Shown: positions 13,132 through 52,914, counted from the stretch's first letter. The stretch: 64,000 bases of DNA from Escherichia coli (GCF_016026235.1 NZ_CP065613.1), one strand, 5' to 3'. Notes: generated by a model not told the origin, from the letters alone. Program-made: numbers and translations.

Positions 13132-13396
13132 GATATGACTTTCCGTGTCAAACCGGAATCTCTAATTTTGACGATTTTCTTTTTAGGTTTAATTCCCTGA
13201 GGGCGACGTAGCAGTAAATCCGACGGTGAATCACGCTGATATTCGCGGGTTGGATACCGCATTACAGAGGTCCGTCATATGAGCCTGCCACTTTCTTACG
13301 TCGCGAATCAGCTTTGTTCCGCCGTCGCCAAGCGCTAACGTGGGTTACTCTTGTACCGGGCTACGTCGCCTTCAGGGAACTGGTTATTCTCATTTT
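13132..13396 (-). ncRNA. Candidate structured non-coding RNA (bridge/seek-type guide RNA) in the 3' non-coding region of the IS110-family element
   Basis: No credible ORF; long-range inverted repeat CCCTGAGGGCGACGTAGC (13195-13212) pairs with GCTACGTCGCCTTCAGGG (13360-13377) at 17 of 18 positions; strand and exact ends not determined. Confidence 0.3.
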
Positions 13397-14524: not shown

Positions 14525-15559
14525 GCTGGCCTCCGTGGTGGAAATACCGGGGTGTAGCAACAGCTCACCCATGCGGCTCTGACAACGATGTTAACCCGCG
14601 TTAAATATCCCACGTTGGCCAGCATCTGTCTCACGGAAAGTCATACTGCCTTACGGGCCGATGCTACCGGAGCTGCTCGGCGGTTCGGCGGATCTGGCTC
14701 CCAGCAACCTGACCATCTGGAAAGGTTCTGTTTCGCTGAAGGAAGATCCGGCGGGCAACTACATTCACTACGGGGTGCGTGAATTTGGCATGACCGCTAT
14801 CGCCAACGGCATTGCGCACCACGGCGGCTTTGTGCCGTATACCGCAACGTTCCTGATGTTTGTTGAATACGCCCGTAACGCCGCGCGGATGGCGGCACTG
14901 ATGAAAGCGCGGCAGATTATGGTTTATACCCACGACTCAATTGGTCTGGGCGAAGATGGTCCGACGCACCAGGCTGTTGAGCAACTGGCCAGCCTGCGCT
15001 TAACGCCAAATTTCAGCACCTGGCGACCGTGCGATCAGGTGGAAGCGGCGGTGGGCTGGAAGCTGGCGGTTGAGCGCCACAACGGACCGACGGCACTGAT
15101 TCTCTCCAGGCAGAATCTGGCCCAGGTGGAACGTACGCCGGATCAGGTTAAAGAGATTGCTCGTGGCGGTTATGTGCTGAAAGACAGCGGCGGTAAGCCA
15201 GATATTATTTTGATTGCCACCGGTTCAGAGATGGAAATCACCCTGCAAGCGGCAGAGAAATTAGCGGGAGAAGGTCGCAATGTTCGCGTAGTTTCCCTGC
15301 CCTCGACCGATATTTTCGACGCCCAGGATGAGGAATATCGGGAGTCGGTGTTGCCTTCTAACGTTGCGGCTCGCGTGGCGGTGGAAGCAGGTATTGCCGA
15401 TTACTGGTACAAGTATGTTGGTCTGAAAGGGGCAATTGTCGGGATGACGGGTTATGGGGAATCTGCTCCGGCGGATAAGCTGTTCCCGTTCTTTGGCTTT
15501 ACCGCCGAGAATATTGTGGCAAAAGCGCATAAGGTGCTGGGAGTGAAAGGTGCCTGATG

Positions 15560-15597: not shown

Positions 15598-16456
<859 letters not shown>

Positions 16457-16481
<25 letters not shown>

Positions 16482-16978
16482 TTCTCCAGCTCCTGGCGCT
16501 TTTTTTCCAGGAGATGCTCCTGCATGGCTTTCAGATATGCATTTTCTGCGCGAAGATAACGCAGCTCATTCTTCATCTCTTCCGGCGTCATGTTTCCCTC
16601 GTTTTCATGGGTATCATTAGAACGGGTCATGCTTTTCTCCTTCCTGCGCCTGATAAAGGCCTCATTACCAGATTTGCGGTAGCCTTTTATCCAGTTTTTA
16701 ACCATGTTGTGGCTGGGAATGTTAAACCGGGCAGCTACCCGGGGTAGAGACTCAGAATGCCCGAGAGCATAAAGAACCACGCAAAGTTTATCTTCAGGAG
16801 AATAGCTACGCTTGTGTCTGCAATCCAGTGCCTGAGGACCGTGAAGAAGAAAAAGATTAATCCAGTGTGAGAGGCTGGTGTGAGAAAGTTGAAAGAGTTT
16901 TGCCGTAGAAATGATGCCTGCATGACCGGCCAGGTAATGATTTACAGCGGCAAGTTTTACTTCAAATGAATGTTTCAT
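16457..16978 (-). CDS. insJ: IS150 OrfA (InsJ), helix-turn-helix DNA-binding protein
   Basis: 173 aa starting MKHSFEVKLAAVNHYLAGHAG; leucine-zipper-like C-terminus. Confidence 0.88.
16499..16505 (-). other. Probable programmed -1 ribosomal frameshift heptamer A-AAA-AAG in the IS150 orfA/orfB overlap
   Basis: Reverse-strand CTG GAA AAA AAG CGC near the end of orfA, with orfB open in the -1 frame. Confidence 0.55.
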
Positions 16979-17029
16979 AAACTGCACCTTCAGATGTCAG
17001 ATTATGTCCAACATTTGGGGTGCAGTTCA

Positions 17030-34236: not shown

Positions 34237-35115
34237 TTACAGCAAACCGGCATGCTTAAGCGCCGCTCTGACCGTCTCACGACCACTGTCGGTGATTGGT
34301 GTCATTGGCAGGCGCAGCGTATCGGTCGCCACAAGACCCAGTTCCTTACATGCCCATTTCACCGGGATTGGATTGGGTTCGACAAATAGTTTGTTGTGTA
34401 ATGGCATCAGACGCTGATTAATAACGCGTGCCTCGGCAAAATGCCCTTCTGCTGCCAGTTTGCACATCTGGGCCATATCACGCGCTGCGACGTTAGCCGT
34501 AACGGAAATAACCCCATGACCGCCTAATTGCATGAAGTCCAGCGCGCTCGCATCATCGCCGCTCAGCAGAACAAAATCATCTGAAACCAGCTCTTTGATC
34601 TGGTTTACACGCGTTAAGTTCCCTGTTGCCTCTTTGATTCCGATAATATTTTTTACTTTCGCCAGACGGCCCACCGTTTCCGGGAGCAGATCGCAGCCAG
34701 TACGGGACGGCACATTATACAGAATTTGCGGCAGGTCAGTATGCTCAGCGATGGCTTTGAAATGCTGATACAAACCTTCTTGCGACGGACGATTGTAGTA
34801 AGGGGTTACCGTCAGGCAGCCGACGATACCACTGTCATTGAAGCGCTGCGTCAGGCTAATGGCTTCCGCAGTAGCGTTAGCACCGGTCCCGGCAATCACC
34901 GGAATGCGCCCGTCAGCCAGCTCCAGCGTCATCATCACCACATCAGCATGTTCGTCATGATTTAAGGTAGCGGACTCGCCAGTGGTGCCAACAGAAACGA
35001 TCGCCGAAGTACCGCTGGCGACATGATAATCAATCAGTTTTTTCAAGCTAGCCCGACAGACATTACCTTTTTCATCCATCGGAGTAACAATCGCGACAAT
35101 ACTTCCCGTGAACAT
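34237..35115 (-). CDS. dapA: 4-hydroxy-tetrahydrodipicolinate synthase DapA
   Basis: ORF track 34237..35133; start at [17 protein letters not shown] gives 292 aa. Confidence 0.92.
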
Positions 35116-35260
35116 GGGCCATCCTCTGTGCAAACAAGTGTCTCAATGGTACGTTTGGTATGGCATTAAAAGCAAGCAGACAGAACCGTTCTGATTGTTG
35201 TATGCATGTTTTTTTTATGCTTTCCTTAAGAACAACTCACCCCTTAAAGGAATAACCAGT

Positions 35261-35833
35261 TTGACACTGTCATCGCAACATTATCTGGTGATCACTGCGT
35301 TGGGTGCCGATCGCCCTGGAATTGTGAACACCATCACCCGTCATGTCAGTAGTTGCGGCTGTAATATTGAAGACAGTCGCCTGGCGATGCTGGGAGAAGA
35401 GTTCACGTTTATCATGCTGCTTTCCGGTTCATGGAATGCCATCACTCTGATTGAATCAACGTTACCGTTGAAAGGTGCCGAACTGGATCTTTTAATCGTG
35501 ATGAAGCGCACGACGGCGCGTCCGCGTCCGCCAATGCCAGCATCTGTCTGGGTTCAGGTCGATGTGGCAGACTCCCCGCATTTAATTGAACGCTTCACAG
35601 CACTTTTCGACGCGCATCATATGAACATTGCGGAGCTGGTGTCGCGCACGCAACCTGCTGAAAATGAACGGGCTGCGCAGTTGCATATTCAGATAACCGC
35701 CCACAGCCCCGCATCTGCGGACGCAGCAAATATTGAGCAAGCGTTCAAAGCCCTATGTACAGAACTCAATGCACAAGGCAGTATTAACGTCGTCAATTAT
35801 TCCCAACATGATGAACAGGATGGAGTTAAGTAA
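35261..35833 (+). CDS. gcvR: Glycine cleavage system transcriptional repressor GcvR
   Basis: ORF track 35195..35833; probable TTG start at 35261 (MTLSSQHYLVITALGADRPG) gives 190 aa; tandem ACT-like domains. Confidence 0.8.
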   Translation: MTLSSQHYLVITALGADRPGIVNTITRHVSSCGCNIEDSRLAMLGEEFTFIMLLSGSWNAITLIESTLPLKGAELDLLIVMKRTTARPRPPMPASVWVQVDVADSPHLIERFTALFDAHHMNIAELVSRTQPAENERAAQLHIQITAHSPASADAANIEQAFKALCTELNAQGSINVVNYSQHDEQDGVK

Positions 35834-36303
35834 TGAATCCACTGAAAGCCGGTGATATCGCACCGAAATTTAGCTTGCCGGATCAAGACAGAGAACAAGT
35901 TAATTTGACCGACTTCCAGGGACAGCGTGTTCTGGTTTATTTCTACCCGAAAGCCATGACCCCCGGCTGTACCGTACAGGCCTGCGGCTTACGCGATAAC
36001 ATGGATGAGTTGAAAAAAGCGGGCGTTGATGTGCTGGGTATCAGCACCGATAAACCCGAAAAACTCTCCCGTTTTGCGGAAAAAGAGCTGCTTAACTTTA
36101 CGCTCCTGTCTGATGAGGACCACCAGGTGTGCGAACAATTCGGCGTCTGGGGTGAAAAGTCCTTCATGGGCAAAACCTACGATGGCATTCATCGCATCAG
36201 CTTCCTGATTGACGCTGATGGCAAAATCGAACATGTCTTTGACGATTTCAAAACCAGCAATCACCACGACGTTGTGCTGAACTGGCTGAAAGAACACGCC
36301 TGA
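35833..36303 (+). CDS. bcp: Thiol peroxidase Bcp (peroxiredoxin)
   Basis: 156-aa ORF with PKAMTPGCT peroxidatic cysteine motif; TAATG overlap with gcvR. Confidence 0.92.
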   Translation: MNPLKAGDIAPKFSLPDQDREQVNLTDFQGQRVLVYFYPKAMTPGCTVQACGLRDNMDELKKAGVDVLGISTDKPEKLSRFAEKELLNFTLLSDEDHQVCEQFGVWGEKSFMGKTYDGIHRISFLIDADGKIEHVFDDFKTSNHHDVVLNWLKEHA

Positions 36304-36498
36304 TTACTTTGCTCCATTCCGTGCTGGCTGCGCTTGCGGCCAGCATACCTCACTTCTCGTGATCAAGATCACATTCTCGCTTTCCCCTGCGACACGGGTG
36401 TCGAATCCATTTTTTGCTGAACGTTAATGACCATCATTTTTGTACCGTTCAGAATCCAGTTAATTCATAACTTATTGAATATATTAAATTAATCAGAC

Positions 36499-36514
36499 TG
36501 GCATCCTTTATGCA
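36499..36514 (+). promoter_or_regulatory. Sigma-54 (-24/-12) promoter for the hyf operon
   Basis: TGGCAT-N7-TGCA with correct GG/GC spacing, about 40 bp upstream of the hyfA ATG; hyf encodes its own sigma-54 activator HyfR. Confidence 0.65.
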
Positions 36515-36555
36515 ATATGAAATGCAATGTTTCATATCATTTTCAAGGAGCCGAC

Positions 36556-37173
36556 ATGAACCGCTTTGTGGTGGCCGAACCACTGTGGTGTACAGGATGT
36601 AATACCTGTCTCGCTGTCTGTTCGGACGTGCATAAAACGCAAGGTTTACAGCAACACCCGCGCCTGGCCCTGGCGAAGACGTCAACACTCACTGCCCCTG
36701 TCGTGTGTCATCACTGTGAGGAAGCCCCTTGCCTGCAGGTCTGCCCGGTCAATGCCATCTCCCAGAGGGATGATGCGATCCAACTCAACGAAAGCCTCTG
36801 TATTGGCTGCAAGCTTTGCGCCGTGGTCTGCCCATTTGGCGCAATCAGCGCTTCAGGAAGCCGTCCGGTGAATGCCCCTGCGCAATATGTTTTTCAGGCT
36901 GAAGGCTCACTCAAAGACGGCGAAGAAAACGCGCCAACACAACATGCTTTGCTGCGCTGGGAACCGGGTGTCCAGACCGTCGCGGTGAAATGCGACCTGT
37001 GTGATTTCTTGCCAGAAGGTCCGGCCTGCGTTCGCGCTTGCCCGAATCAGGCGTTACGGCTGATCACCGACGATAGCCTGCAACGTCAGATGAAAGAAAA
37101 ACAGCGCCTTGCCGCAAGCTGGTTTGCCAATGGCGGGGAGGATCCCCTTTCCCTCACTCAGGAGCAACACTAA
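36556..37173 (+). CDS. hyfA: Hydrogenase-4 component A, 4Fe-4S ferredoxin-type
   Basis: 205-aa ORF with multiple CxxCxxCxxxCP motifs. Confidence 0.9.
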   Translation: MNRFVVAEPLWCTGCNTCLAVCSDVHKTQGLQQHPRLALAKTSTLTAPVVCHHCEEAPCLQVCPVNAISQRDDAIQLNESLCIGCKLCAVVCPFGAISASGSRPVNAPAQYVFQAEGSLKDGEENAPTQHALLRWEPGVQTVAVKCDLCDFLPEGPACVRACPNQALRLITDDSLQRQMKEKQRLAASWFANGGEDPLSLTQEQH

Positions 37174-39195
37174 TGGATGCCCTGCAATTATTAACCTGGT
37201 CGCTGATCCTCTATCTGTTTGCCAATCTGGCTTCGCTGTTTTTACTCGGTCTGGACAGACTGGCTATTAAGCTTTCCGGCATCACATCGCTGGTGGGCGG
37301 CGTGATTGGCATCATCAGCGGAATTACGCAATTACATGCTGGTGTAACTTTAGTCGCCCATTTTGCCACCCCTTTTGACTTTGCCGATTTAACCCTGCGA
37401 ATGGATAGCCTCTCGGCATTTATGGTGCTGGTTATCTCCTTGCTGGTGGTGGTTTGTTCGCTCTATTCATTGACTTATATGCGCGAATACGAGGGCAAAG
37501 GCGCGGCGGCGATGGGCTTCTTTATGAATCTTTTCATCGCATCGATGGTTGCCCTGCTGGTGATGGACAACGCTTTTTGGTTCATCGTGCTGTTTGAAAT
37601 GATGTCGCTGTCTTCCTGGTTTCTGGTCATTGCCAGGCAGGATAAAACGTCGATCAACGCTGGCATGCTCTACTTTTTTATCGCCCACGCCGGATCGGTG
37701 CTGATTATGATCGCCTTCTTGCTGATGGGGCGCGAAAGCGGCAGCCTCGATTTTGCCAGTTTCGCACGCTTTCACTTTCTCCGGGGCTGGCGTCGGCGGT
37801 GTTTCTGCTGGCCTTTTTCGGTTTTGGCGCGAAAGCCGGGATGATGCCGTTGCACAGCTGGTTGCCGCGCGCTCACCCTGCCGCACCATCGCACGCTTCG
37901 GCGTTGATGTCTGGCGTAATGGTCAAAATCGGTATTTTCGGCATCCTGAAAGTAGCGATGGATCTGCTGGCGCAAACGGGTTTGCCTCTGTGGTGGGGCA
38001 TTCTGGTGATGGCGATCGGCGCAATCTCCGCGCTCCTGGGCGTGCTATATGCGCTGGCGGAACAGGATATCAAACGGCTGCTGGCCTGGAGTACCGTCGA
38101 AAACGTCGGCATTATTTTGCTGGCAGTCGGTGTGGCGATGGACGGTCTGTCACTGCACGACCCGCTGCTCACCGTGGTTGGACTGCTCGGCGCACTGTTT
38201 CATCTGCTCAACCATGCGCTGTTCAAAGGGCTGCTATTTCTCGGCGCGGGCGCGATTATTTCGCGTTTGCATACCCACGACATGGAAAAAATGGGGGCAC
38301 TGGCGAAACGGATGCCGTGGACAGCCGCAGCATGCCTGATTGGTTGCCTCGCGATATCAGCCATTCCTCCGCTGAATGGTTTTATCAGCGAATGGTACAC
38401 CTGGCAGTCGCTGTTCTCACTAAGTCGTGTGGAAGCCGTAGCGCTACAACTTGCGGGTCCTATTGCTATGGTAATGCTGGCAGTCACTGGTGGGCTGGCA
38501 GTAATGTGCTTCGTAAAAATGTACGGTATTACTTTCTGTGGTGTGGTGCGCCGCGCAGTACACACGCTGAAGAGGCACAGGAAGTGCCAAATACGATGAT
38601 CGTCGCCATGCTACTGCTCGCGGCACTCTGCGTATTAATTGCGCTTAGTGCCAGTTGGCTGGCACCGAAGATAATGCATATTGCCCATGCGTTTACCAAT
38701 ACCCCTCCCGTCACTGTCGCCAGCGGAATAGCACTTGTACCCGGCACGTTTCATACACGGGTCACTCCTTCATTACTGTTGCTGTTACTACTGGCGATGC
38801 CTTTGCTGCCTGGCCTTTACTGGCTGTGGTGTCGTTCGCGCCGCGCAGCGTTTCGTCGCACAGGAGATGCCTGGGCATGCGGCTACGGCTGGGAAAATGC
38901 GATGGCCCCGTCAGGCAATGGCGTGATGCAGCCGCTGCGTGTGGTCTTTTCTGCGCTATTTCGTCTACGACAACAGCTCGACCCTACGCTGAGGCTAAAT
39001 AAAGGTCTTGCGCACGTCACCGCCAGGGCTCAGAGCACAGAACCCTTCTGGGATGAGCGGGTGATCCGCCCCATCGTGAGCGCCACCCAACGGCTGGCCA
39101 AAGAAATACAGCATCTGCAAAGCGGCGACTTTCGTCTCTATTGCCTGTATGTGGTCGCCGCACTGGTTGTGCTGCTAATCGCTATTGCCGTCTAA
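37173..39195 (+). pseudogene. hyfB: Hydrogenase-4 membrane subunit HyfB, disrupted by two frameshifts
   Basis: Three consecutive ORF segments in frames 0, 2 and 1 (37173..37844, about 37760..38547, about 38548..39195); total 2023 nt, which equals a 673-codon gene minus 1 plus 5. Confidence 0.8.
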
Positions 39196-39205
39196 GGAAA
39201 TCACC

Positions 39206-40153
39206 ATGAGACAAACTCTTTGCGACGGATATCTGGTCATTTTTGCGTTAGCACAGGCCGTGATTCTGCTGATGCTAACCCCACTTTTTACGGGTATTTC
39301 CCGGCAGATACGCGCGCGTATGCACTCCCGCCGCGGGCCGGGGATCTGGCAGGATTATCGCGATATCCACAAACTGTTTAAACGCCAGGAAGATGCGCCG
39401 ACATCTTCAGGTCTGATGTTCCGCCTGATGCCGTGGGTATTAATCAGCAGCATGCTGGTGCTGGCGATGGCCCTACCACTATTTATTACCGTTTCCCCTT
39501 TTGCGGGCGGCGGCGATCTGATCACCCTTATCTATCTTCTTGCCCTGTTTCGTTTTTTCTTTGCTCTTTCAGGGCTGGATACCGGAAGCCCGTTTGCGGG
39601 AGTCGGTGCCAGTCGCGAGTTGACGCTCGGCATTCTGGTCGAACCCATGCTCATTCTCTCACTGCTGGTATTGGCGCTGATAGCAGGTTCCACGCATATC
39701 GAGATGATCAGCAATACGCTGGCAACGGGCTGGAACTCGCCGCTAACCACCGTACTGGCGTTACTGGCCTGTGGTTTTGCCTGCTTCATTGAGATGGGAA
39801 AAATTCCCTTTGATGTTGCTGAAGCAGAACAGGAATTACAGGAAGGCCCGCTGACAGAATATTCCGGTGCCGGGCTGGCGCTGGCGAAATGGGGGCTGGG
39901 GCTGAAACAGGTCGTGATGGCAGCACTGTTTGTGGCCCTGTTTCTGCCCTTTGGGCGCGCGCAAGAACTTTCTCTCGCCTGCCTGCTGACTTCACTTGTC
40001 GTTACGCTGCTCAAGGTTTTGCTGATTTTTGTACTGGCCTCAATCGCAGAAAACACGCTGGCACGCGGGCGTTTTTTACTCATTCACCATGTGACCTGGC
40101 TTGGCTTCAGCCTTGCTGCGCTTGCATGGGTCTTCTGGTTAACCGGTCTGTAA
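39206..40153 (+). CDS. hyfC: Hydrogenase-4 membrane subunit HyfC (NuoH-like)
   Basis: ORF track 39185..40153; start at MRQTLCDGYLVIF gives 315 aa. Confidence 0.88.
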   Translation: MRQTLCDGYLVIFALAQAVILLMLTPLFTGISRQIRARMHSRRGPGIWQDYRDIHKLFKRQEDAPTSSGLMFRLMPWVLISSMLVLAMALPLFITVSPFAGGGDLITLIYLLALFRFFFALSGLDTGSPFAGVGASRELTLGILVEPMLILSLLVLALIAGSTHIEMISNTLATGWNSPLTTVLALLACGFACFIEMGKIPFDVAEAEQELQEGPLTEYSGAGLALAKWGLGLKQVVMAALFVALFLPFGRAQELSLACLLTSLVVTLLKVLLIFVLASIAENTLARGRFLLIHHVTWLGFSLAALAWVFWLTGL

Positions 40154-40169
40154 GGAGCACTGACGGAAT

Positions 40170-41608
40170 ATGGAAAATCTTGCTCTGACGACGTTATTGC
40201 TGCCTTTTATCGGCGCACTGGTCGTTTCGTTTTCGCCACAACGTCGGGCCGCCGAATGGGGGGTTTTGTTCGCCGCGCTGACCACGCTGTGCATGTTGTC
40301 GCTGATCTCCGCGTTTTATCAGGCCGATAAAGTTGCCGTCACGTTGACGTTGGTCAACGTGGGGGATGTGGCATTGTTTGGCCTGGTCATTGATCGCGTG
40401 AGTACGCTGATTCTGTTTGTGGTGGTGTTTCTCGGTTTGCTGGTCACGATCTACTCCACGGGTTATCTGACGGATAAAAATCGCGAACACCCGCATAACG
40501 GCACGAATCGTTATTACGCATTTTTGCTGGTGTTTATCGGCGCGATGGCGGGACTGGTACTCTCCTCGACGCTGCTCGGTCAGTTGTTGTTTTTTGAAAT
40601 TAGGGCGGCTGCTCCTGGGCGTTGATCAGTTATTACCAGAGCGATAAAGCGCAGCGTTCAGCACTAAAAGCGTTGCTTATCACCCATATCGGTTCGTTGG
40701 GGTTGTATCTTGCCGCCGCCACGCTGTTTTTGCAGACCGGAACGTTTGCGCTTAGCGCAATGAGCGAGTTACACGGCGACGCACGTTATCTGGTTTATGG
40801 CGGGATCCTGTTTGCCGCGTGGGGGAAATCGGCCCAGCTACCGATGCAAGCGTGGCTACCGGATGCAATGGAAGCGCCAACACCGATCAGCGCCTATCTC
40901 CACGCCGCATCGATGGTGAAAGTGGGCGTTTACATTTTTGCCCGCGCAATTATCGACGGCGGCAATATCCCGCATGTGATTGGCGGCGTTGGCATGGTCA
41001 TGGCACTGGTCACCATTCTTTATGGCTTTCTGATGTATTTGCCACAGCAGGATATGAAGCGGTTGCTGGCCTGGTCGACCATCACTCAACTTGGCTGGAT
41101 GTTCTTCGGCTTGTCGCTCTCCATCTTCGGCTCGCGGCTGGCGCTGGAGGGTAGCATCGCCTACATCGTCAACCACGCGTTCGCTAAAAGCCTGTTTTTC
41201 CTTGTAGCAGGTGCGCTGAGTTACAGCTGCGGCACGCGCTTGTTGCCGCGTCTGCGTGGCGTATTGCACACCCTGCCGTTGCCAGGCGTGGGTTTCTGCG
41301 TGGCAGCGCTGGCGATTACCGGCGTGCCGCCGTTCAACGGCTTCTTCAGTAAATTCCCGCTGTTTGCTGCCGGTTTTGCGTTGTCAGTGGAGTACTGGAT
41401 CCTGCTGCCCGCCATGATTCTGCTGATGATTGAATCGGTCGCCAGTTTCGCCTGGTTTATTCGCTGGTTTGGTCGCGTTGTGCCTGGCAAACCGAGCGAG
41501 GCCGTCGCCGATGCCGCACCGCTGCCAGGGTCAATGCGCCTGGTGTTGATTGTACTGATTGTGATGTCGCTGATTTCCAGCGTAATCGCCGCGACCTGGT
41601 TGCAGTAA
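40170..41608 (+). pseudogene. hyfD: Hydrogenase-4 membrane subunit HyfD, disrupted by one frameshift
   Basis: Two ORF segments (40170..40625 and 40622..41608) in different frames; total 1439 nt, which equals a 480-codon gene minus 1. Confidence 0.8.
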
Positions 41609-41619
41609 GGAGATGATGA

Positions 41620-42270
41620 ATGACCGGTTCTATGATCGTAAATAATCTGGCGGGACTGATGATGCTGACATCGCTGTTTGTGATTAGCGTCAAAAGCTAT
41701 CGCCTGTCATGCGGATTTTACGCCTGCCAGTCGCTGGTGCTGGTGTCTATTTTCGCCACTCTCTCGTGCCTGTTCGCCGCAGAGCAACTGCTGATCTGGT
41801 CCGCCAGCGCCTTTATCACCAAAGTGCTGCTGGTACCGTTAATCATGACTTACGCTGCACGAAATATTCCCCAGAACATCCCGGAAAAAGCGTTATTCGG
41901 TCCGGCAATGATGGCACTGCTCGCGGCGTTAATTGTCCTGCTTTGCGCATTTGTCGTTCAGCCCGTGAAGCTACCGATGGCTACCGGGCTGAAACCGGCG
42001 CTGGCGGTAGCGTTAGGTCATTTTCTGCTTGGCCTGCTGTGCATTGTCAGCCAGCGCAATATCCTGCGGCAAATTTTTGGTTACTGCCTGATGGAAAACG
42101 GCTCCCATCTGGTGCTGGCGCTTCTTGCCTGGCGAGCACCGGAACTGGTGGAAATAGGTATCGCTACCGACGCCATCTTCGCCGTCATTGTGATGGTGTT
42201 ACTGGCAAGAAAAATATGGCGTACCCACGGCACGCTGGACGTGAACAACTTGACCGCGCTGAAGGGATAA
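41620..42270 (+). CDS. hyfE: Hydrogenase-4 membrane subunit HyfE
   Basis: 216-aa hydrophobic ORF; operon position. Confidence 0.88.
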
Positions 42271-42274
42271 TGAG

Positions 42275-43855
42275 ATGAGTTATTCTGTGATGTTCGCTTT
42301 ACTCCTGCTCACGCCGCTGCTTTTTTCGCTGCTCTGTTTTGCCTGCCGGAAACGGGGGCTCTCTGCGACTTGTACGGTGACTGTATTACATAGCTTAGGG
42401 ATCACACTGCTGCTGATTCTAGCACTCTGGGTGGTCCAAACTGCCGCTGATGCAGGAGAAATATTCGCTGCGGGACTGTGGCTTCATATTGATGGTCTGG
42501 GCGGTTTGTTCCTCGCCATTCTTGGTGTGATTGGCTTTCTCACCGGTGTTTACTCGATTGGCTACATGCGTCATGAAGTGGCACACGGCGAGCTTTCACC
42601 CGTTACGCTGTGCGATTACTACGGTTTCTTCCATCTGTTTTTGTTCACCATGCTGCTGGTTGTTACCAGCAATAACCTGATTGTGATGTGGGCGGCGATC
42701 GAAGCCACCACCTTAAGCTCGGCGTTTCTGGTAGGCATTTACGGTCAGCGTTCATCGCTGGAAGCTGCATGGAAGTACATCATTATTTGTACTGTTGGTG
42801 TCGCTTTTGGTCTGTTCGGTACCGTGCTGGTATACGCCAACGCCGCCAGCGTTATGCCGCAGGCAGAAATGGCGATATTCTGGAGCGAGGTTCTTAAGCA
42901 ATCGTCCTTGCTTGACCCAACATTAATGCTGTTGGCCTTTGTGTTTTTGCTAATTGGCTTTGGTACCAAAACCGGGCTATTTCCCATGCACGCCTGGCTG
43001 CCGGATGCTCACAGTGAAGCGCCGAGTCCGGTCAGCGCCCTGCTCTCCGCCGTATTGCTGAACTGCGCGCTGTTGGTGCTGATTCGCTATTACATCATTA
43101 TTTGCCAGGCCATCGGCAGCGATTTCCCCAACCGGTTGTTGCTCATCTTCGGCATGTTGTCGGTTGCCGTGGCGGCATTTTTCATTCTGGTACAGCGGGA
43201 CATTAAGCGTCTGCTGGCGTACTCCAGCGTGGAGAACATGGGGCTGGTCGCGGTGGCGCTAGGCATTGGCGGGCCGCTGGGAATTTTTGCCGCGCTGCTG
43301 CACATCTTAAACCACAGTCTGGCAAAAACGCTGCTGTTCTGCGGTTCCGGCAATGTACTGCTCAAGTACGGCACGCGCGATCTCAACGTCGTCTGTGGGA
43401 TGCTCAAAATCATGCCATTTACCGCCGTGCTGTTTGGCGGCGGTGCGCTGGCGCTGGCAGGGATGCCGCCCTTCAACATTTTTCTTAGCGAATTTATGAC
43501 CATTACCGCCGGACTGGCACGTAATCACCTGCTGATTATCGTCCTGCTGTTATTGCTGTTAACGCTGGTGCTGGCGGGCCTGGTACGGATGGCAGCGCGG
43601 GTGTTAATGGCGAAACCGCCGCAGGCCGTTAACCGGGGTGATCTCGGCTGGTTGACCACCTCGCCAATGGTGATTCTGCTGGTCATGATGCTGGCGATGG
43701 GAACGCATATTCCACAACCTGTCATCAGGATCCTGGCGGGCGCTTCCACTATAGTCCTCTCAGGGACGCACGACCTGCCTGCACAACGTAGCACCTGGCA
43801 TGATTTTTTGCCTTCAGGCACCGCATCTGTTTCGGAGAAACACAGTGAACGTTAA
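42275..43855 (+). CDS. hyfF: Hydrogenase-4 membrane subunit HyfF (NuoL/M/N-like antiporter module)
   Basis: 526-aa polytopic ORF. Confidence 0.88.
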
Positions 43856-45512
43856 TTCATCGTCAAATCGTGGCGAAGCGATTCTCGCCGCCCTGAAAAC
43901 GCAGTTCCCCGGCGCGGTGCTGGATGAAGAGCGACAAACGCCTGAACAGGTCACCATTACGGTGAAAATCAATCTGCTGCCTGACGTTGTACATTATCTT
44001 TATTATCAACATGATGGCTGGCTTCCAGTCCTGTTTGGCAACGACGAGCGGACACTTAACGGTCATTACGCGGTTTATTATGCCCTTTCAATGGAAGGGG
44101 CCGAAAAATGCTGGATCGTGGTGAAGGCACTGGTCGATGCCGACAGTCGGGAGTTTCCGTCAGTCACACCGCGCGTCCCTGCCGCGGTCTGGGGCGAGCG
44201 AGAAATTCGCGATATGTACGGGCTGATTCCGGTTGGCCTGCCGGATCAGCGTCGCCTGGTGTTGCCCGATGACTGGCCGGAAGATATGCATCCGCTGCGC
44301 AAAGATGCGATGGATTATCGACTGCGCCCTGAACCGACGACAGATTCCGAAACGTATGCGTTTATCAATGAGGGCAACAGCGATGCGCGGGTGATCCCTG
44401 TCGGCCCGCTGCATATCACCTCCGATGAACCGGGTCACTTCCGCTTGTTTGTGGATGGCGAGCAAATTGTCGATGCTGATTACCGCCTGTTATATGTCCA
44501 TCGCGGCATGGAGAAACTGGCAGAAACGCGGATGGGCTACAACGAAGTGACCTTCTTATCGGACCGCGTGTGTGGGATTTGCGGTTTTGCCCACAGTGTG
44601 GCCTATACCAACTCGGTTGAAAATGCACTGGGGATTGAGGTGCCGCAACGAGCACATACTATTCGCTCGATTCTGCTGGAAGTCGAACGGCTACACAGTC
44701 ATTTGCTTAACCTTGGCCTCTCCTGCCATTTCGTTGGTTTTGATACCGGCTTTATGCAATTTTTCCGCGTGCGGGAAAAGTCGATGACGATGGCGGAATT
44801 GCTGATCGGGTCGCGTAAAACCTACGGTCTGAATCTGATTGGTGGTGTTCGCCGCGATATTCTCAAAGAGCAACGTCTGCAAACGCTGAAACTGGTGCGC
44901 GAGATGCGCGCCGACGTGTCGGAGCTGGTAGAGATGCTGCTTGCTACGCCGAATATGGAACAACGCACTCAGGGCATTGGCATTCTCGACCGACAAATCG
45001 CCCGTGATTTGCGCTTTGATCACCCCTACGCCGACTACGGCAATATTCCAAAAACACTGTTTACCTTTACCGGCGGCGATGTTTTCTCCCGCGTGATGGT
45101 CCGTGTCAAAGAGACGTTTGATTCGCTGGCAATGCTGGAATTTGCCCTCGACAACATGCCGGATACCCCACTGCTGACCGAAGGCTTTAGCTATAAACCT
45201 CACGCATTCGCGCTGGGCTTTGTTGAAGCGCCACGCGGTGAAGACGTGCACTGGAGCATGCTCGGTGATAACCAAAAATTGTTCCGCTGGCGCTGCCGTG
45301 CCGCCACCTACGCCAACTGGCCGGTGTTGCGTTACATGCTGCGCGGCAATACCGTTTCTGACGCACCGCTGATTATCGGTAGCCTTGATCCCTGCTACTC
45401 CTGTACCGACCGTGTGACGCTGGTAGATGTGCGCAAGCGCCAGTCAAAAACCGTGCCGTATAAAGAGATCGAACGCTACGGCATTGATCGTAACCGTTCA
45501 CCGCTGAAGTAA
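43845..45512 (+). CDS. hyfG: Hydrogenase-4 large [NiFe] catalytic subunit HyfG
   Basis: ORF track 43800..45512; probable GTG start at 43845 gives 555 aa; [11 protein letters not shown]-terminal and [10 protein letters not shown]-terminal Ni-binding motifs. Confidence 0.88.
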
Positions 45513-45521
45513 GGACAGAAG

Positions 45522-46067
45522 ATGCTGAAGTTACTGAAAACTATTATGCGCGCCGGAACCGCGACGGTGAAATATCCCTTCGCGCCACTGGAGGTCAGCC
45601 CAGGCTTTCGCGGGAAACCGGACCTGATGCCCAGCCAATGTATTGCCTGCGGTGCCTGCGCCTGTGCTTGTCCGGCAAATGCGCTGACTATCCAGACCGA
45701 CGACCAGCAAAATTCGCGCACCTGGCAGCTCTATCTGGGGCGTTGTATTTACTGCGGACGTTGTGAAGAAGTGTGTCCGACCAGAGCCATCCAGCTTACC
45801 AATAACTTTGAACTGACCGTCACCAATAAAGCCGATCTCTATACCCGCGCGACGTTCCATCTACAACGTTGCAGCCGTTGCGAACGCCCGTTTGCCCCGC
45901 AAAAAACCGTCGCACTGGCTGCTGAATTGTTGGCACAGCAACAAAATGCGCCACAAAACCGCGAAATGTTATGGGCGCAAGCGAGCGTCTGCCCGGAGTG
46001 CAAACAACGCGCGACGCTGCTCAACGACGATACAGATGTACCGCTGGTGGCTAAGGAGCAGCTATGA
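45522..46067 (+). CDS. hyfH: Hydrogenase-4 Fe-S subunit HyfH
   Basis: 181-aa ORF with [12 protein letters not shown] and [12 protein letters not shown] motifs. Confidence 0.9.
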
Positions 46068-46822
46068 GTCCAGTGCTTACACAACATGTCAGCCAGCCCA
46101 TCACGCTGGACGAGCAAACGCAAAAGATGAAGCAGCATTTGCTACAGGATATCCGTCGCTCGGCTTACGTTTATCGCGTCGATTGCGGCGGCTGCAACGC
46201 CTGTGAAATCGAAATTTTTGCTGCCATCACCCCCGTATTCGACGCAGAACGTTTTGGCATTAAGGTTGTTTCATCACCGCGTCACGCCGATATTTTGTTA
46301 TTTACTGGCGCAGTCACTCGGGCGATGCGTATGCCTGCACTTCGGGCGTATGAGTCTGCCCCCGATCATAAAATCTGTGTTTCCTACGGCGCGTGCGGTG
46401 TCGGCGGCGGTATTTTCCACGATCTCTACAGCGTCTGGGGCGGCAGCGACACCATTGTCCCCATTGATGTTTGGATCCCCGGCTGCCCGCCAACACCGGC
46501 CGCCACCATTCACGGTTTCGCCGTGGCGCTCGGTTTGCTGCAACAGAAGATTCACGCTGTGGATTATCGCGATCCCACCGGGGTGACTATGCAACCGTTG
46601 TGGCCGCAGATCCCGCCATCACAGCGTATCGCCATTGAGCGAGAAGCGCGGCGGCTGGCGGGCTATCGTCAGGGGCGAGAAATTTGCGATCGGCTCCTGC
46701 GCCATTTAAGCGACGATCCTACAGGAAATCGGGTTAACACCTGGTTGCGCGATGCCGACGATCCACGTCTCAATAGTATCGTTCAGCAACTCTTTCGCGT
46801 ACTCCGGGGGTTACATGACTGA
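46064..46822 (+). CDS. hyfI: Hydrogenase-4 small subunit HyfI (NuoB-like)
   Basis: 252-aa ORF with [16 protein letters not shown] and GCPP motifs. Confidence 0.9.
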
Positions 46823-47228
46823 AGAGTGCGGGGAAATTGTTTTCTGGACGCTGCGAAAAAAGTTTGTCGCCAGTAGCGACGAGATGCCGGAACACAGCTC
46901 TCAGGTAATGTATTACTCGCTGGCTATCGGCCATCACGTTGGCGTGATTGATTGTCTGAATGTCGCCTTCCGCTGCCCACTGACGGAATACAAAGATTGG
47001 CTTGCACTGGTCGAAGAGGAGCAAGCCCGACGTAAGATGCTGGGGGTGATGACTTTTGGTGAGATTGTTATTGACGCCAGCCACACCGCCCTGTTGACCC
47101 GGGCATTCGCGCCACTGGCAGATGACGCGACGTCTGTGTGGCAAGCGCGTAGCATTCAATTCATTCATCTGTTGGATGAAATTGTGCTGGAACCGGCTAT
47201 CTATCTGATGGCCAGAAAAATTGCGTGA
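46815..47228 (+). CDS. hyfJ: HyfJ (HycH-like hydrogenase maturation/processing protein)
   Basis: ORF track 46752..47228; start at [11 protein letters not shown] gives 137 aa. Confidence 0.8.
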
Positions 47229-47257
47229 GAAGGATTTCTCATTAATAAGGACTGTTG

Positions 47258-49269
47258 ATGGCTATGTCAGACGAGGCGATGTTTGCCCCGCCGCAAGGAA
47301 TAACAATTGAAGCGGTAAACGGAATGCTCGCGGAGCGGTTAGCGCAGAAACACGGCAAGGCGTCTTTATTACGCGCCTTCATCCCGCTGCCGCCGCCGTT
47401 CAGCCCGGTACAACTTATTGAACTGCATGTTCTCAAAAGCAACTTCTATTACCGCTACCATGATGATGGCAGCGATGTGACGGCAACAACAGAGTATCAG
47501 GGCGAGATGGTCGATTATTCGCGTCACGCCGTCCTTCTCGGCAGTAGTGGAATGGCGGAGCTACGCTTTATTCGTACCCACGGCAGCCGTTTTACTCCCC
47601 AGGATTGCACACTGTTTAACTGGCTGGCACGCATTATCACTCCGGTTCTGCAATCATGGCTCAATGATGAAGAACAACAGGTGGCGCTGCGTTTGCTGGA
47701 GAAAGATCGCGATCATCATCGGGTACTGGTTGATATTACTAATGCAGTGCTGTCACATCTTGATCTCGACGATCTGATCGCTGACGTCGCTCGTGAGATC
47801 CATCATTTTTTCGGTCTGGCTTCAGTCAGTATGGTACTGGGCGATCATCGAAAGAACGAGAAGTTTAGCCTGTGGTGCAGCGATCTTTCTGCCTCACATT
47901 GTGCGTGTCTGCCACGCAATATGCCTGGCGACAGTGTATTGCTGACACAAACGCTACAAACCCGACAACCGACCTTGACGCACCGTGCAGACGTCTGTTT
48001 CTCTGGCAACGCGACCCGTTATTACTCTTACTTGCATCTAACGGCTGCGAATCTGCGCTCCTTATACCGCTTACCTTTGGCAACCATACACCGGGTGCAT
48101 TGTTGCTGGCGCATACCTCTTCCACTCTCTTTAGTGAGGAAAACTGCCAGCTACTACAACACATAGCCGATCGCATCGCTATTGCCGTTGGCAATGCCGA
48201 TGCCTGGCGTAGAATGACCGATTTGCAGGAAAGTTTGCAGCAAGAAAACCACCAGCTTAGCGAGCAGCTCCTTTCGAATCTGGGCGTCGGTGACATTATC
48301 TATCAAAGCCAGGCAATGGAAGACCTACTCCAGCAGGTAGATATTGTGGCGAAGAGCGACAGTACGGTGTTGATTTGCGGTGAAACCGGAACCGGCAAAG
48401 AGGTGATCGCCAGAGCGATCCATCAACTTAGCCCGCGACGCGACAAGCCGCTGGTCAAAATCAACTGCGCTGCCATCCCCGCCAGTCTTCTGGAAAGTGA
48501 GTTATTCGGTCATGACAAAGGAGCGTTTACTGGTGCGATTAATACCCATCGTGGTCGTTTTGAAATTGCCGATGGCGGCACGTTGTTTCTCGATGAAATT
48601 GGCGATCTGCCGTTAGAACTTCAGCCTAAACTGCTGCGCGTATTGCAGGAACGGGAGATTGAGCGTCTCGGCGGGAGTAGAACGATCCCGGTAAATGTCA
48701 GAGTCATTGCCGCCACCAACCGTGATTTGTGGCAAATGGTTGAAGATCGCCAGTTTCGCAGCGATCTCTTTTATCGCCTGAATGTCTTCCCACTGGAATT
48801 GCCGCCGCTGCGCGACCGTCCGGAAGATATCCCTCTTTTAGCAAAGCATTTCACGCAAAAAATGGCGCGCCATATGAATCGTTCAATTGACGCCATCCCG
48901 ACCGAGGCGCTACGCCAGTTGATGTCGTGGGACTGGCCGGGCAACGTGCGCGAGCTGGAAAACGTGATTGAGCGAGCGGTACTGCTGACTCGCGGTAACA
49001 GTCTGAATTTACATCTTAATGTCCGACAAAGCCGTTTACTGCCGACGCTAAATGAAGATTCAGCGCTTCGCAGTTCAATGGCGCAGTTGCTGCACCCGAC
49101 GACGCCAGAGAATGACGAAGAAGAACGTCAGCGCATTGTTCAGGTATTGCGAGAAACCAATGGCATTGTTGCCGGGCCCCGTGGCGCGGCGACACGATTA
49201 GGGATGAAGCGCACCACGCTGCTGTCACGAATGCAGCGTCTGGGGATCTCGGTTCGCGAGGTGTTGTAA
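47258..49269 (+). pseudogene. hyfR: Sigma-54-dependent activator HyfR (GAF + AAA+ + HTH), disrupted by one frameshift in the GAF region
   Basis: Two overlapping ORF segments in different frames (47255..48166 and 47872..49269); total 2012 nt, which equals a 671-codon gene minus 1; the downstream segment has the sigma-54 activator motifs GETGTGKE and GAFTGA. Confidence 0.8.
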
Positions 49270-49290
49270 TCTGCTTTTGCAGGAGTATGC

Positions 49291-50139
49291 ATGAGAAACA
49301 AACTCTCTTTCGACTTGCAGTTGAGCGCCAGAAAAGCGGCAATCGCTGAACGGATTGCCGCCCATAAAATTGCCCGCAGTAAAGTGTCGGTCTTTTTAAT
49401 GGCGATGTCCGCTGGCGTGTTTATGGCGATCGGATTTACTTTTTACCTTTCCGTTATCGCCGATGCCCCGTCTTCACAGGCATTAACCCATCTGGTGGGC
49501 GGCCTTTGCTTTACACTCGGCTTTATTTTGCTGGCGGTTTGCGGCACCAGCCTGTTCACCTCGTCGGTAATGACGGTGATGGCAAAAAGTCGGGGCGTTA
49601 TTAGTTGGCGAACTTGGCTGATTAACGCACTTCTGGTGGCCTGTGGTAATCTGGCAGGTATTGCCTGTTTCAGTTTGTTAATCTGGTTTTCCGGGCTGGT
49701 GATGAGTGAAAACGCGATGTGGGGAGTCGCGGTTTTACACTGCGCCGAGGGCAAAATGCATCATACATTTACTGAATCTGTCAGCCTCGGCATTATGTGC
49801 AATCTGATGGTTTGCCTGGCGCTGTGGATGAGTTATTGCGGGCGTTCGTTATGCGACAAAATCGTCGCCATGATTTTGCCCATCACCCTGTTTGTCGCCA
49901 GTGGCTTTGAGCACTGTATCGCCAATTTGTTTGTGATTCCGTTCGCCATTGCCATTCGCCATTTCGCCCCTACCTCCTTCTGGCAACTGGCGCACAGTAG
50001 CGCAGACAATTTTCCGGCACTGACGGTCAGCCATTTTATTACCGCCAATCTGCTCCCGGTGATGCTGGGTAATATTATCGGCGGTGCAGTGCTGGTGAGT
50101 ATTTGTTATCGGGCTATTTATTTACGTCAGGAATCCTGA
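49291..50139 (+). CDS. focB: Formate channel FocB (FNT family)
   Basis: 282-aa polytopic ORF at the end of the hyf operon. Confidence 0.88.
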   Translation: MRNKLSFDLQLSARKAAIAERIAAHKIARSKVSVFLMAMSAGVFMAIGFTFYLSVIADAPSSQALTHLVGGLCFTLGFILLAVCGTSLFTSSVMTVMAKSRGVISWRTWLINALLVACGNLAGIACFSLLIWFSGLVMSENAMWGVAVLHCAEGKMHHTFTESVSLGIMCNLMVCLALWMSYCGRSLCDKIVAMILPITLFVASGFEHCIANLFVIPFAIAIRHFAPTSFWQLAHSSADNFPALTVSHFITANLLPVMLGNIIGGAVLVSICYRAIYLRQES

Positions 50140-50176
50140 AAAATCAGCCCGGCGAAACAGTTCGTCGGGCTGAAGA

Positions 50177-51238
50177 TTATTCTTGCGCGATTTGCCCATC
50201 GGGCCAGGCGTGGATCACGGCTTTGATCAGCGTCGCCAATGGAATGGCGAAGAATACGCCCCAGAATCCCCACAAACCACCGAAGATCACCACCGATAAA
50301 ATAATCACCAGCGGATGCAGGTTAACCGCTTCGGAGAACAACACCGGTACTAGCAGGTTGCCGTCCAGCGCCTGAATAATCAGATACACCGCGAAGCAGC
50401 TCCAGAATTCCGTGCCTGCGCCAAACTGGAATAGCGCCACGCCAACCACCGGAATGGTCACCACAAATGCGCCAATGTACGGAATAAGAACCGAGAAGCC
50501 GACCAGCACCGCCAGCAGCAGCGAATAGTTCAGCCCAAAGAGCAAGAACCCCAGCCAGGTGGCGATCCCCACCACGATCATCTCCAGCACTTTGCCGCGG
50601 ATATAGTTGGTGATTTGTTGATTCATCTCCTTCCACACCTGTCCTGCCAGTCCACGGTTGCGCGGCAGCACCCGACGAACGGCGTTCAGCATCTGCTCTT
50701 TGTCTTTCAGCAGGAAGAAGACCATCAATGGCACCAGCACCAGATAGACGGCAATGGTCAGCAAACCGACCAGCGAGGCGAGGGAAATTTTCACCACCGA
50801 ATCGCCCATGGTCAGCATCCGACTGCGCATATTTTCGGCCATTGCATCAATAATGCCCGCGTCCATTAACGCCGGATAGCGGCGCGGCAACGTGGCGGCA
50901 AAGTCAGAAAGCTTATTGAGCATCCCCGGCATATCGCGGATTAAGTAGATGCCCTGTTGCCAGGCGATAGGCAGTACCACGAACGCCATCAGTAGCAATA
51001 TACCGACAAAAACCACCAATACAATCGACGTCGCCCAGCGGCGGGAGCAGCCAATAGATTGCAGGCGCACGGTTGGCCATTCCAGCAAATAGGCCAGCAC
51101 AATAGCCACCAGCAACGGAGCAAGCAGGCCACTAAAGAAAAAGATAATGCCAAATCCGGCAACTAAAATAACCAGCAAGGCAATCGCTTCCGGGTCGCTA
51201 AAACGGCGGCGATACCATTGCATCAACATTTCGAGCAT
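50177..51238 (-). CDS. perM: Putative permease PerM (AI-2E/UPF0118 family)
   Basis: 353-aa polytopic ORF. Confidence 0.85.
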   Translation of the reverse strand: MLEMLMQWYRRRFSDPEAIALLVILVAGFGIIFFFSGLLAPLLVAIVLAYLLEWPTVRLQSIGCSRRWATSIVLVVFVGILLLMAFVVLPIAWQQGIYLIRDMPGMLNKLSDFAATLPRRYPALMDAGIIDAMAENMRSRMLTMGDSVVKISLASLVGLLTIAVYLVLVPLMVFFLLKDKEQMLNAVRRVLPRNRGLAGQVWKEMNQQITNYIRGKVLEMIVVGIATWLGFLLFGLNYSLLLAVLVGFSVLIPYIGAFVVTIPVVGVALFQFGAGTEFWSCFAVYLIIQALDGNLLVPVLFSEAVNLHPLVIILSVVIFGGLWGFWGVFFAIPLATLIKAVIHAWPDGQIAQE

Positions 51239-51450
51239 AAAAACCTTCCCTGAACCTCAAGAGCGGGATTGCGATCCGCAATTGTATCGAAATGTCACAA
51301 AAAAGACTTCGCTTTTTATGACGGATTCAGGAAACTGAAAAGTCATTTGAGTGGGCTAATCTTCGCCGTTACACTCAAAGGCGGCGCGGTGGGAACGATA
51401 TTTAACAGTATCGGTCAAATGACTATCTTCAGAAATACAGGATAGAGGTT

Positions 51451-52914
51451 ATGTTCAGGCAGTTGAAAAAAAACCTGGTTGCAACCCTCATTGCTGCTAT
51501 GACCATTGGTCAGGTAGCCCCGGCGTTTGCCGACAGCGCAGACACCTTGCCGGATATGGGAACCTCCGCAGGAAGCACGCTTTCCATTGGTCAGGAAATG
51601 CAGATGGGCGACTATTATGTCCGCCAGCTACGCGGCAGCGCGCCGTTAATTAATGACCCGCTGTTAACGCAATATATTAATTCGCTGGGGATGCGTCTGG
51701 TTTCGCATGCCAATTCGGTTAAGACACCGTTTCATTTTTTTCTGATCAACAACGACGAAATTAACGCCTTTGCTTTCTTTGGCGGCAACGTGGTGCTGCA
51801 CTCTGCCCTGTTCCGTTATTCCGATAACGAAAGTCAACTGGCTTCAGTTATGGCGCACGAAATCTCCCACGTCACCCAACGTCACCTGGCGCGAGCGATG
51901 GAAGATCAACAACGCAGCGCGCCGCTGACCTGGGTCGGCGCGTTAGGTTCTATTTTACTGGCGATGGCCAGTCCGCAGGCGGGGATGGCGGCGCTGACCG
52001 GTACACTGGCGGGAACACGTCAGGGGATGATCAGTTTCACCCAGCAAAATGAACAGGAAGCGGACCGCATTGGTATTCAGGTGCTGCAACGCTCGGGATT
52101 CGATCCGCAGGCGATGCCAACCTTCCTCGAAAAATTACTCGATCAGGCGCGTTACTCCTCGCGCCCGCCGGAAATTTTATTGACTCACCCGTTGCCGGAA
52201 AGTCGTCTGGCAGATGCCCGCAACCGTGCTAATCAGATGCGACCGATGGTGGTGCAGTCGTCGGAAGATTTCTATCTGGCGAAAGCGCGCACACTGGGGA
52301 TGTATAATTCCGGACGTAACCAGCTCACCAGTGATTTGCTGGATGAATGGGCGAAAGGAAACGTTCGTCAGCAACGAGCGGCGCAATATGGTCGTGCTTT
52401 ACAGGCGATGGAAGCCAATAAATACGACGAGGCGCGTAAAACGCTGCAACCGTTACTGGCGGCAGAACCTGGCAACGCATGGTATCTCGATCTGGCTACC
52501 GATATCGATCTTGGGCAAAACAAAGCCAATGAGGCAATCAATCGCCTGAAAAATGCCCGTGATTTGCGCACCAATCCGGTGTTGCAGCTCAACCTGGCAA
52601 ACGCTTATCTGCAAGGCGGTCAACCACAAGAAGCGGCCAATATTCTCAATCGCTACACCTTTAATAATAAAGATGACAGCAACGGCTGGGATTTACTGGC
52701 ACAGGCGGAAGCCGCGCTAAATAACCGCGATCAGGAGCTGGCTGCGCGAGCAGAAGGTTATGCGCTCGCCGGACGACTCGATCAGGCCATTTCGCTGTTG
52801 AGTAGCGCCAGTTCGCAGGTGAAATTAGGCAGCCTGCAACAAGCGCGTTACGATGCGCGCATCGACCAGTTGCGCCAGCTGCAGGAACGCTTTAAGCCTT
52901 ATACCAAGATGTAA
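51451..52914 (+). CDS. bepA: Periplasmic metalloprotease/chaperone BepA (M48 peptidase with TPR domain)
   Basis: 487-aa ORF with signal peptide and [10 protein letters not shown] zinc motif. Confidence 0.9.

Follow-up and report, generated by a model that had tools for sequence, protein, structure and literature searches.

Evidence for Stepwise Decay of the hyf (Hydrogenase-4) Operon in an Escherichia coli Strain

Introduction

Why do four frame breaks within 64,000 nucleotides of an Escherichia coli chromosome all fall into one operon, and can that operon still encode a working enzyme? The stretch in question (GCF_016026235.1, NZ_CP065613.1), referred to at its full length as the window, contains the hyf operon, which encodes hydrogenase-4/formate hydrogenlyase-2 (Hyd-4/FHL-2). 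An initial annotation, made from the sequence of the window, had interpreted the frame breaks as recent decay of a dispensable locus in which the promoter and the catalytic genes remained intact. The analysis presented here indicates, with a probability of about 0.9, that the hyf operon of this strain has genuinely become a pseudo-operon, hit several times in the course of stepwise decay. Of the five lesions identified, three are common E. coli alleles (a 1-bp deletion in hyfB, a 1-bp deletion in hyfD, and a 48-bp deletion in hyfG); the other two, which duplicate 5 bp of hyfB and delete 1 bp of hyfR, are private to the lineage.

The operon has a history of its own in E. coli K-12, where hyfABCDEFGHIJR-focB is described as a "silent" operon (Andrews 1997; Self 2004, as cited in PMC7384014 and PMC7654741). 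Finney et al. (PMC7654741) constructed 15 K-12 strains in which promoters and the HyfG and HycE tails were swapped and proteases supplied, and found no Hyd-4 activity, and the inactivity of the E. coli FHL-2 has been called a long-standing mystery (Lindenstrauss and Pinske, bioRxiv 10.1101/563510; PMC7654741). In contrast, Pectobacterium atrosepticum and Trabulsiella guamensis, which carry homologous hyfA-J genes and a HyfG that is 79–84% identical, are functional H2 producers with a HyfK protease, a full-length HyfG, and intact membrane subunits.

Frame Breaks in hyfB, hyfD, and hyfR

The window is a segment of E. coli chromosome with eutH at one end and pdeF at the other, and it is colinear with positions 2.567–2.629 Mb of K-12 MG1655. 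The gene order hyfA-B-C-D-E-F-G-H-I-J-R-focB between bcp (upstream) and yfgO (downstream) identifies the hyf operon, a group 4a [NiFe] hydrogenase locus, and all 12 operon genes are colinear with K-12 at 98–99.8% identity. Two comparisons with K-12 MG1655 were made: a global alignment of window positions 34355–51857 and a gene-by-gene alignment for which all 54 K-12 genes overlapping the window were extracted and each aligned to it. The two operons share the locus, the gene order, the flanking genes, the core of the sigma-54 promoter, and ~98.9% nucleotide identity. The difference lies in the reading frames, which are open throughout in K-12, whereas the global alignment revealed precisely four indels within hyf in the window: a 1-bp deletion and a 5-bp insertion in hyfB and one 1-bp deletion each in hyfD and hyfR (all genes on the plus strand).

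The hyfB pseudogene (37173–39195), encoding a NuoL/HycC-like membrane subunit, is spread over three reading frames. The first lesion, a 1-bp deletion (CC to C; TTTCCGC in K-12, TTTCGC in the window) at nucleotide 591 of the gene (37762–37763), removes the frame at codon 197, and the product ends after 223 amino acids (aa), ~197 of them native, at a first stop in codon 224 of 673. The second lesion, a tandem duplication of TGTGG (38537–38541), shifts the frame again at nucleotide 1365. Between the two lesions the wrong frame stays open for ~261 codons (37753–38537) and joins the true C-terminal frame past the 5-bp duplication, creating a misleading 480-aa open reading frame at 37753–39195. In the hyfD pseudogene (40170–41608), a 1-bp deletion at nucleotide 434 (40602–40603) results in a product of 151 aa (~144 native) that ends at a first stop in codon 152 of 480. 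The hyfR pseudogene (47258–49269), encoding a sigma-54 activator, carries a 1-bp deletion at nucleotide 737 in codon 246 (47993–47994) and is left with a 302-aa product (first stop in codon 303 of 671). The Pfam domains of an intact HyfR are GAF (residues 168–311), Sigma54_activat (347–513), and HTH_8 (621–661); the break falls inside GAF, and both the AAA+ (sigma-54 ATPase) and the HTH domains lie downstream of it. The window thus encodes neither the activator with GAF, sigma-54 AAA+, and HTH domains nor the intact HycC-type, antiporter-like HyfB expected of a functional Hyd-4/FHL-2.

Of the 54 K-12 orthologues, only hyfB, hyfD, and hyfR contain coding indels, namely these four. The claim that all frameshifts of the window lie inside hyf was therefore borne out, the other wholly contained genes being free of gaps and premature stops relative to K-12; the probability that four uniformly placed indels would all hit the 12.7-kb hyf stretch is ~0.002, a figure that was calculated post hoc. 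The accompanying statement that the other ~45 genes have their full lengths held with respect to indels and failed in two places: tktB is split by an IS110-family insertion, and hyfG is full length only in comparison with K-12.

The complete genome nearest to the window is FDAARGOS_943 (NZ_CP065615.1), with 100% identity across hyf and 99.95% elsewhere. The two are not identical: the window differs by ~24 substitutions, carries an extra insertion of 1518 bp at 13132–14649, and lacks a 4-bp insertion in narQ. All four frameshifts are present in FDAARGOS_943, an independent assembly that is set apart by an insertion sequence (IS) element and single-nucleotide polymorphisms (SNPs); the Prokaryotic Genome Annotation Pipeline marks its hyfB, hyfD, and hyfR as frameshifted, and its hyfB allele is identical to that of the window. 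Furthermore, the Logan assembly of the read set SRR13627082 carries all five hyf lesions, including the hyfG deletion described below, with 5 mismatches per 20.9 kb relative to the window. The exact 302-aa truncated HyfR was found on at least 24 contigs and the exact 151-aa HyfD product on at least 1000. Neither the TTG-start HyfR product nor the middle HyfB fragment was matched in an exact-sequence look-up, likely because gene callers pick other start codons. None of the four sites lies in a homopolymer of four or more bases. The frame breaks are real, since the same lesions recur in independent assemblies and two of them also in hundreds to more than 1000 genomes; assembly error is excluded, and the preference of the initial annotation for genuine decay over sequencing error is upheld. 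Programmed frameshifting was also weighed as a means of rescue but rejected, as the lesions lack a slippery or repeat context and several of them lie in different frames.

An In-Frame Deletion in hyfG Hidden by the K-12 Reference

The hyfG gene (43845–45512, plus strand), encoding the [NiFe] large subunit, has an open frame of 555 codons and was listed among the intact catalytic genes. This assessment has to be reversed, since it is valid only relative to K-12. Most close relatives matched the window in two pieces, and the break corresponds to 48 bp of hyfG that strain 13E0780 possesses and both the window and K-12 lack (deletion junction at 44988–45021, alignment to intact alleles). The in-frame deletion removes HyfG residues 386–401, ARDYSPVGPLIRGSGF. 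The deleted stretch is flanked by 10-bp direct repeats, GCCCGTGATT, which are perfect in all long E. coli alleles examined and imperfect in outgroups; the window retains a single copy at 45000–45009. The deletion is common to the window, K-12 MG1655, BL21, and about half of the hyf-carrying E. coli, so that the use of K-12 as the yardstick masks a lesion: its own hyfG lacks 16 invariant residues.

The 571-aa HyfG aligns without gaps to HycE (PDB 7Z0S) over the deleted region, whereas aligning the 555-aa HyfG, as encoded by the window and K-12, with HycE, Pyrococcus furiosus MbhL, and NuoCD opens a gap of 16 residues. The segment is retained in 80 of 80 outgroup homologues (other genera, 72–91% identity), where it follows the pattern ARD[YFH]S[PN]VGPxxR[GA]SG[FYH]. 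The scan of genome contigs with HyfG returned outgroup genera only and no Escherichia loci; the outgroup set accordingly polarized hyfG only, and intact E. coli alleles polarized the frameshift sites. Residue numbers were transferred from HycE to HyfG by invariant landmarks (R478=R480, D529=D531, C531=C533, H284=H286, and E437=E439), which on alignment identifies the deleted HyfG Arg397 as the equivalent of HycE Arg395. Together with His284 and Glu437, HycE Arg395 is part of a proposed proton pathway (Steinhilper et al., PMC9474812) that is conserved in FHL, membrane-bound hydrogenase (MBH), soluble hydrogenases, and complex I, where the corresponding residue is NDUFS2 R297 (PMC9474812). The HyfG of the window retains its cysteine motifs, including DPCYSCTDR, and the conserved set of pathway residues (HycE H284, E437, R395, R478, and D529) is incomplete in it because R397 is deleted. 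An AlphaFold2 model of the 571-aa HyfG (30-sequence alignment) had a mean predicted local distance difference test score of 65.7, with ~70 near residues 381–400, and was not used as evidence.

The deletion sits on two different local haplotypes and between direct repeats, which points to recurrent slippage or to gene conversion.

Distribution of the Lesions Across E. coli

The lesions were counted with probes of 34–35 nucleotides centered on each lesion (megablast, 28-nucleotide exact seed), for which matches are restricted to carriers of the lesion allele. Among 5426 complete E. coli genomes, 4298 contain hyf and 1128 do not. The 1-bp deletion in hyfB was found in 1263 of the complete genomes, that in hyfD in 352, and the 34-mer of the hyfG junction in 2112, including K-12 MG1655 and BW2952. 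FDAARGOS_943 is the only complete genome that carries the 5-bp duplication in hyfB and, likewise, the only one with the 1-bp deletion in hyfR. Overall, 2864 genomes carry at least one of the three common lesions. Two further common lesions were taken from relatives of the strain, 1-bp deletions in hyfD (nucleotide 89) and hyfI (nucleotide 348), each of them in linkage with a private SNP; with these included, the five common lesions together affect at least 3047 of the 4298 hyf carriers (71%). When a 44-mer from 13E0780 was used to count the long hyfG allele, only 20 genomes were returned, a number that is uninformative owing to SNPs within the 48 bp.

Based on concatenated probes, 1376 genomes carry the hyfB or the hyfD deletion and 239 carry both. 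A nested arrangement, with all carriers of the hyfD deletion contained within those of the hyfB deletion, was rejected on these numbers, which point to recombination together with other lesions that mask the site. The wide distribution of the two deletions implies that hyf was dead before this lineage arose; the inactivation is not recent, as had been proposed, and only the hyfB duplication and the hyfR deletion are private to the lineage.

The hyf operon is also absent from E. coli lineages of phylogroup B2/FGB2 (Touchon 2009, PMC2617782; PMC6896753). There the same locus is regarded as dispensable within the species, but the whole operon is gone, whereas the operon of the window is retained and eroded by point lesions. 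With at least 71% of the hyf carriers affected by a common disabling lesion and a further 21% of all genomes lacking hyf, Hyd-4 is largely a relic in phylogroups A and B1, whereas its reading frames remain open in strains of the O157/D/F type.

Intact and Decayed Alleles

A set of 14 alleles was fetched and their lesions were called against the O157:H7 allele. Four orthologous operons are intact (O157:H7 NE 1092-2, S1-ISR-02-A, KN12-1, and AR_0067), with all 11 genes open and a 571-aa HyfG that, unlike that of the window, keeps ARDYSPVGPLIRGSGF; these alleles are 97.8–98.7% identical to 13E0780. Together with the 80 outgroup HyfG/HycE sequences they display the ancestral state, relative to which the lesions of the window are derived. 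At least one lesion each was found in K-12, BL21, IAI1, 13E0780, 1919D3, CFSAN027346, RX24, ETEC1747, LP5-1, FDAARGOS_943, and the window. Each of the 11 A/B1-type alleles examined has one or more lesions, variously combined, and some strains contain extra private hits (nonsense mutations in hyfB or hyfF and deletions of 98 bp in hyfB and 208 bp in hyfD). An independent 1-bp deletion in hyfR, nine codons downstream of that in the window, is present in a record labelled Shigella flexneri. Tables of informative sites show the hyf allele of the window to be a mosaic of the surveyed haplotypes. Individual strains display further combinations: in IAI1 focB is frameshifted, and BL21 combines a 1-bp deletion in hyfC with a 1-bp deletion in hyfD and the 48-bp deletion in hyfG.

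The putative sigma-54 promoter upstream of hyfA, a -24/-12 element of the form TGGCAT-N5-ATGCA at 36499–36513 (plus strand), was located by a regular expression and then compared between strains. Its core is identical in the window, in K-12, and in most other alleles, in agreement with the initial annotation, which had listed it as intact. O157:H7 NE 1092-2 and LP5-1 read TGACAT in place of TGGCAT in the -24 element and have thereby lost the conserved GG. In O157:H7, in which all hyf frames are open, this GG to GA change, which the window does not share, may represent a different, promoter-level route to silencing.

Selection on hyf

Compared with K-12, the hyf genes of the window display a ratio of nonsynonymous to synonymous changes per site (pN/pS) of 0.12, as opposed to 0.049 for the other 39 genes. 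The corresponding counts of nonsynonymous and synonymous changes (N:S) are 36:97 in hyf and 70:444 in the flanking genes (p=0.0004). Within the 14 alleles, the N:S of polymorphisms was 140:243 in decayed and 100:286 in intact alleles (odds ratio 1.65, p=0.002), and for hyfG alone it was 15:24 in decayed and 4:43 in intact alleles (p=0.001). On these comparisons purifying selection on hyf is relaxed in the decayed alleles, and the signal is modest.

Model for the Decay and Alternative Explanations

The data are combined most readily in a stepwise model. The three common lesions would have been inherited, partly by recombination among A/B1-type alleles that were already defective, and on top of them the small clonal lineage of the strain carries the hyfB duplication and the hyfR deletion. 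HyfB, which is probably essential by analogy with HycC, is cut at approximately residue 197; HyfG has lost 16 invariant residues, among them the counterpart of HycE Arg395 in the proton pathway proposed to lead to the [NiFe] site; and HyfR is left without its ATPase and DNA-binding domains. With these three losses an active Hyd-4 would not be assembled, and judged from the gene sequences this strain should be unable to make one. The complex may have become non-functional, or may never have been needed beside hydrogenase-3 (Hyd-3), either of which could have relaxed selection across the whole operon, so that further indels accumulated neutrally in an operon that was possibly never expressed. 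The clustering of the lesions would be explained in the same way, because after the loss of any essential part, or in the absence of expression, the entire operon is neutral. Poor native expression of hyf and the lack of a maturation protease in E. coli are described in the literature; in Pectobacterium FHL-2 activity is lost when the whole membrane arm (hyfB-F) is removed, and formate hydrogenlyase-1 (FHL-1) requires HycC (PMC7384014). The decay of hyf in this strain is ordinary in that it affects a known operon by a known kind of event.

Several observations weigh against this interpretation. HyfDEF is dispensable for H2 production in Pectobacterium (PMC7384014), so the hyfD lesion alone is no proof of lost function. 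The pN/pS of the decayed alleles is only 0.17, far below 1, from which it follows that most of the divergence arose while constraint was still in place, and relaxed selection could be tested with modest power only. The genome counts, being based on exact 28-mer seeds, are lower bounds, and the count of the hyfG deletion is inflated by laboratory derivatives of K-12. The same pN/pS of ~0.17 implies that the decay is young on the timescale of the species, though long older than this strain.

Among the alternatives, adaptive loss survives best, although it is considerably less probable than decay under relaxed selection. In favor of selection for inactivation, as opposed to mere tolerance of it, hyf has been inactivated repeatedly and by independent events, as seen from the many different lesions, the hyfG deletion on two haplotypes, and the separate hyfR frameshift in the Shigella flexneri-labelled record; the 1128 genomes entirely without hyf and the flagging of hyfB for a nonsynonymous excess in S. 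sonnei (PMC6811581) fit as well. However, the neutral decay of an unexpressed operon predicts the same pattern, and poor native expression is what the literature reports. Intact alleles persist in strains of the O157/D/F type, and the rise in N:S is modest, with no excess above neutrality. Adaptive loss and neutral decay are inseparable on the present data.

General genome erosion in an IS-rich lineage, with nothing specific to hyf, is improbable as the cause of the clustering. The lineage is indeed also gaining lesions outside hyf: an IS110-family element splits tktB with an IS3-family element adjoining, and FDAARGOS_943 has a frameshifted narQ and an IS1 in pdeF. Yet every small indel of the window lies within hyf, an arrangement with the low chance probability given above, three of the five hyf lesions are widespread and older than the lineage, and hyf is decayed also in many strains that are not IS-rich.

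Slightly less credible still is a trimmed operon, in which a reduced module of HyfA, HyfG, HyfH, HyfI, and HyfC, activated by FhlA, continues to work. Such a module could draw on the dispensability of HyfDEF in Pectobacterium, on the open frames of hyfA, C, E, F, H, I, J, and focB, and on the intact promoter core, but HyfB is truncated where a subunit of the HycC/HyfB type is required, HyfG lacks the invariant 16-aa segment with the proton-pathway arginine, and K-12, with only the hyfG deletion, showed no Hyd-4 activity across 15 engineered strains (PMC7654741). Sequencing or assembly artefacts, such as long-read indel errors in a truly intact operon, are the least plausible explanation, for although three of the four frameshifts are single-base indels and the original finding rested on one assembly, the lesions are identical in FDAARGOS_943 and the separate assembly of SRR13627082, two of them are carried by hundreds to more than 1000 genomes, none lies within a homopolymer of at least four bases, and no other gene of the 64 kb contains an indel.

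The stepwise decay of hyf also bears on the silent operon of K-12. The hyfG deletion offers a specific candidate reason for the silence of Hyd-4, one that is open to a direct repair-and-assay test. Tentatively, and somewhat short of an even chance, it may be an overlooked (major) cause of the inactivity of Hyd-4/FHL-2 in K-12, which would make the reference hyf a cryptic pseudo-operon; O157/D/F-type strains, with their 571-aa HyfG and uninterrupted frames, may on this view still encode an active FHL-2. Literature searches, which covered open-access papers only, retrieved no account of the 48-bp (16-residue) hyfG deletion, of hyf pseudogenes, or of a species-wide mosaic of hyf lesions; the K-12 hyfG deletion and the mosaic therefore appear new within the searchable literature, a scope that does not amount to proof of novelty.

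Other Genes and Disruptions in the Window

The remaining genes of the operon are open and of full length on the plus strand. hyfA (36556–37173) is free of gaps relative to K-12 and has its stop at the expected codon. The gene-by-gene comparison gave the same result for hyfC (39206–40153), for hyfE and hyfF (41620–43855), and, together with lesion calling, for hyfH, hyfI, and hyfJ (45522–47228), as well as for focB (49291–50139), the last gene of the operon. The statement that hyfH and hyfI are intact was confirmed, neither gene containing an indel or a premature stop.

Upstream of the operon, tktB (transketolase 2) is split after nucleotide 1098 by the 1518-bp IS110-family insertion at 13132–14649, a disruption and not a frameshift. 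The insertion shows a 2-bp overlap at its junction and codes on the minus strand for an RNA-guided transposase of the IS110 family (391 aa); the absence of the insertion from both K-12 and FDAARGOS_943 indicates that it is very recent. The IS3-family element (1432 bp, 15598–17029) lies between tktB and ypfG with orfA and orfB on the minus strand and is common to FDAARGOS_943 and absent from K-12. In FDAARGOS_943, narQ is frameshifted by the 4-bp insertion and pdeF is split by IS1; narQ is intact in the window, which stops just short of the IS1 site in pdeF.

Outside hyf, tmcA (29199–31214) displays 24 nonsynonymous and 27 synonymous differences from K-12. Its pN/pS of 0.28 is far above that of its neighbors, and the gene accounts for one third of the non-hyf amino acid changes in the window.

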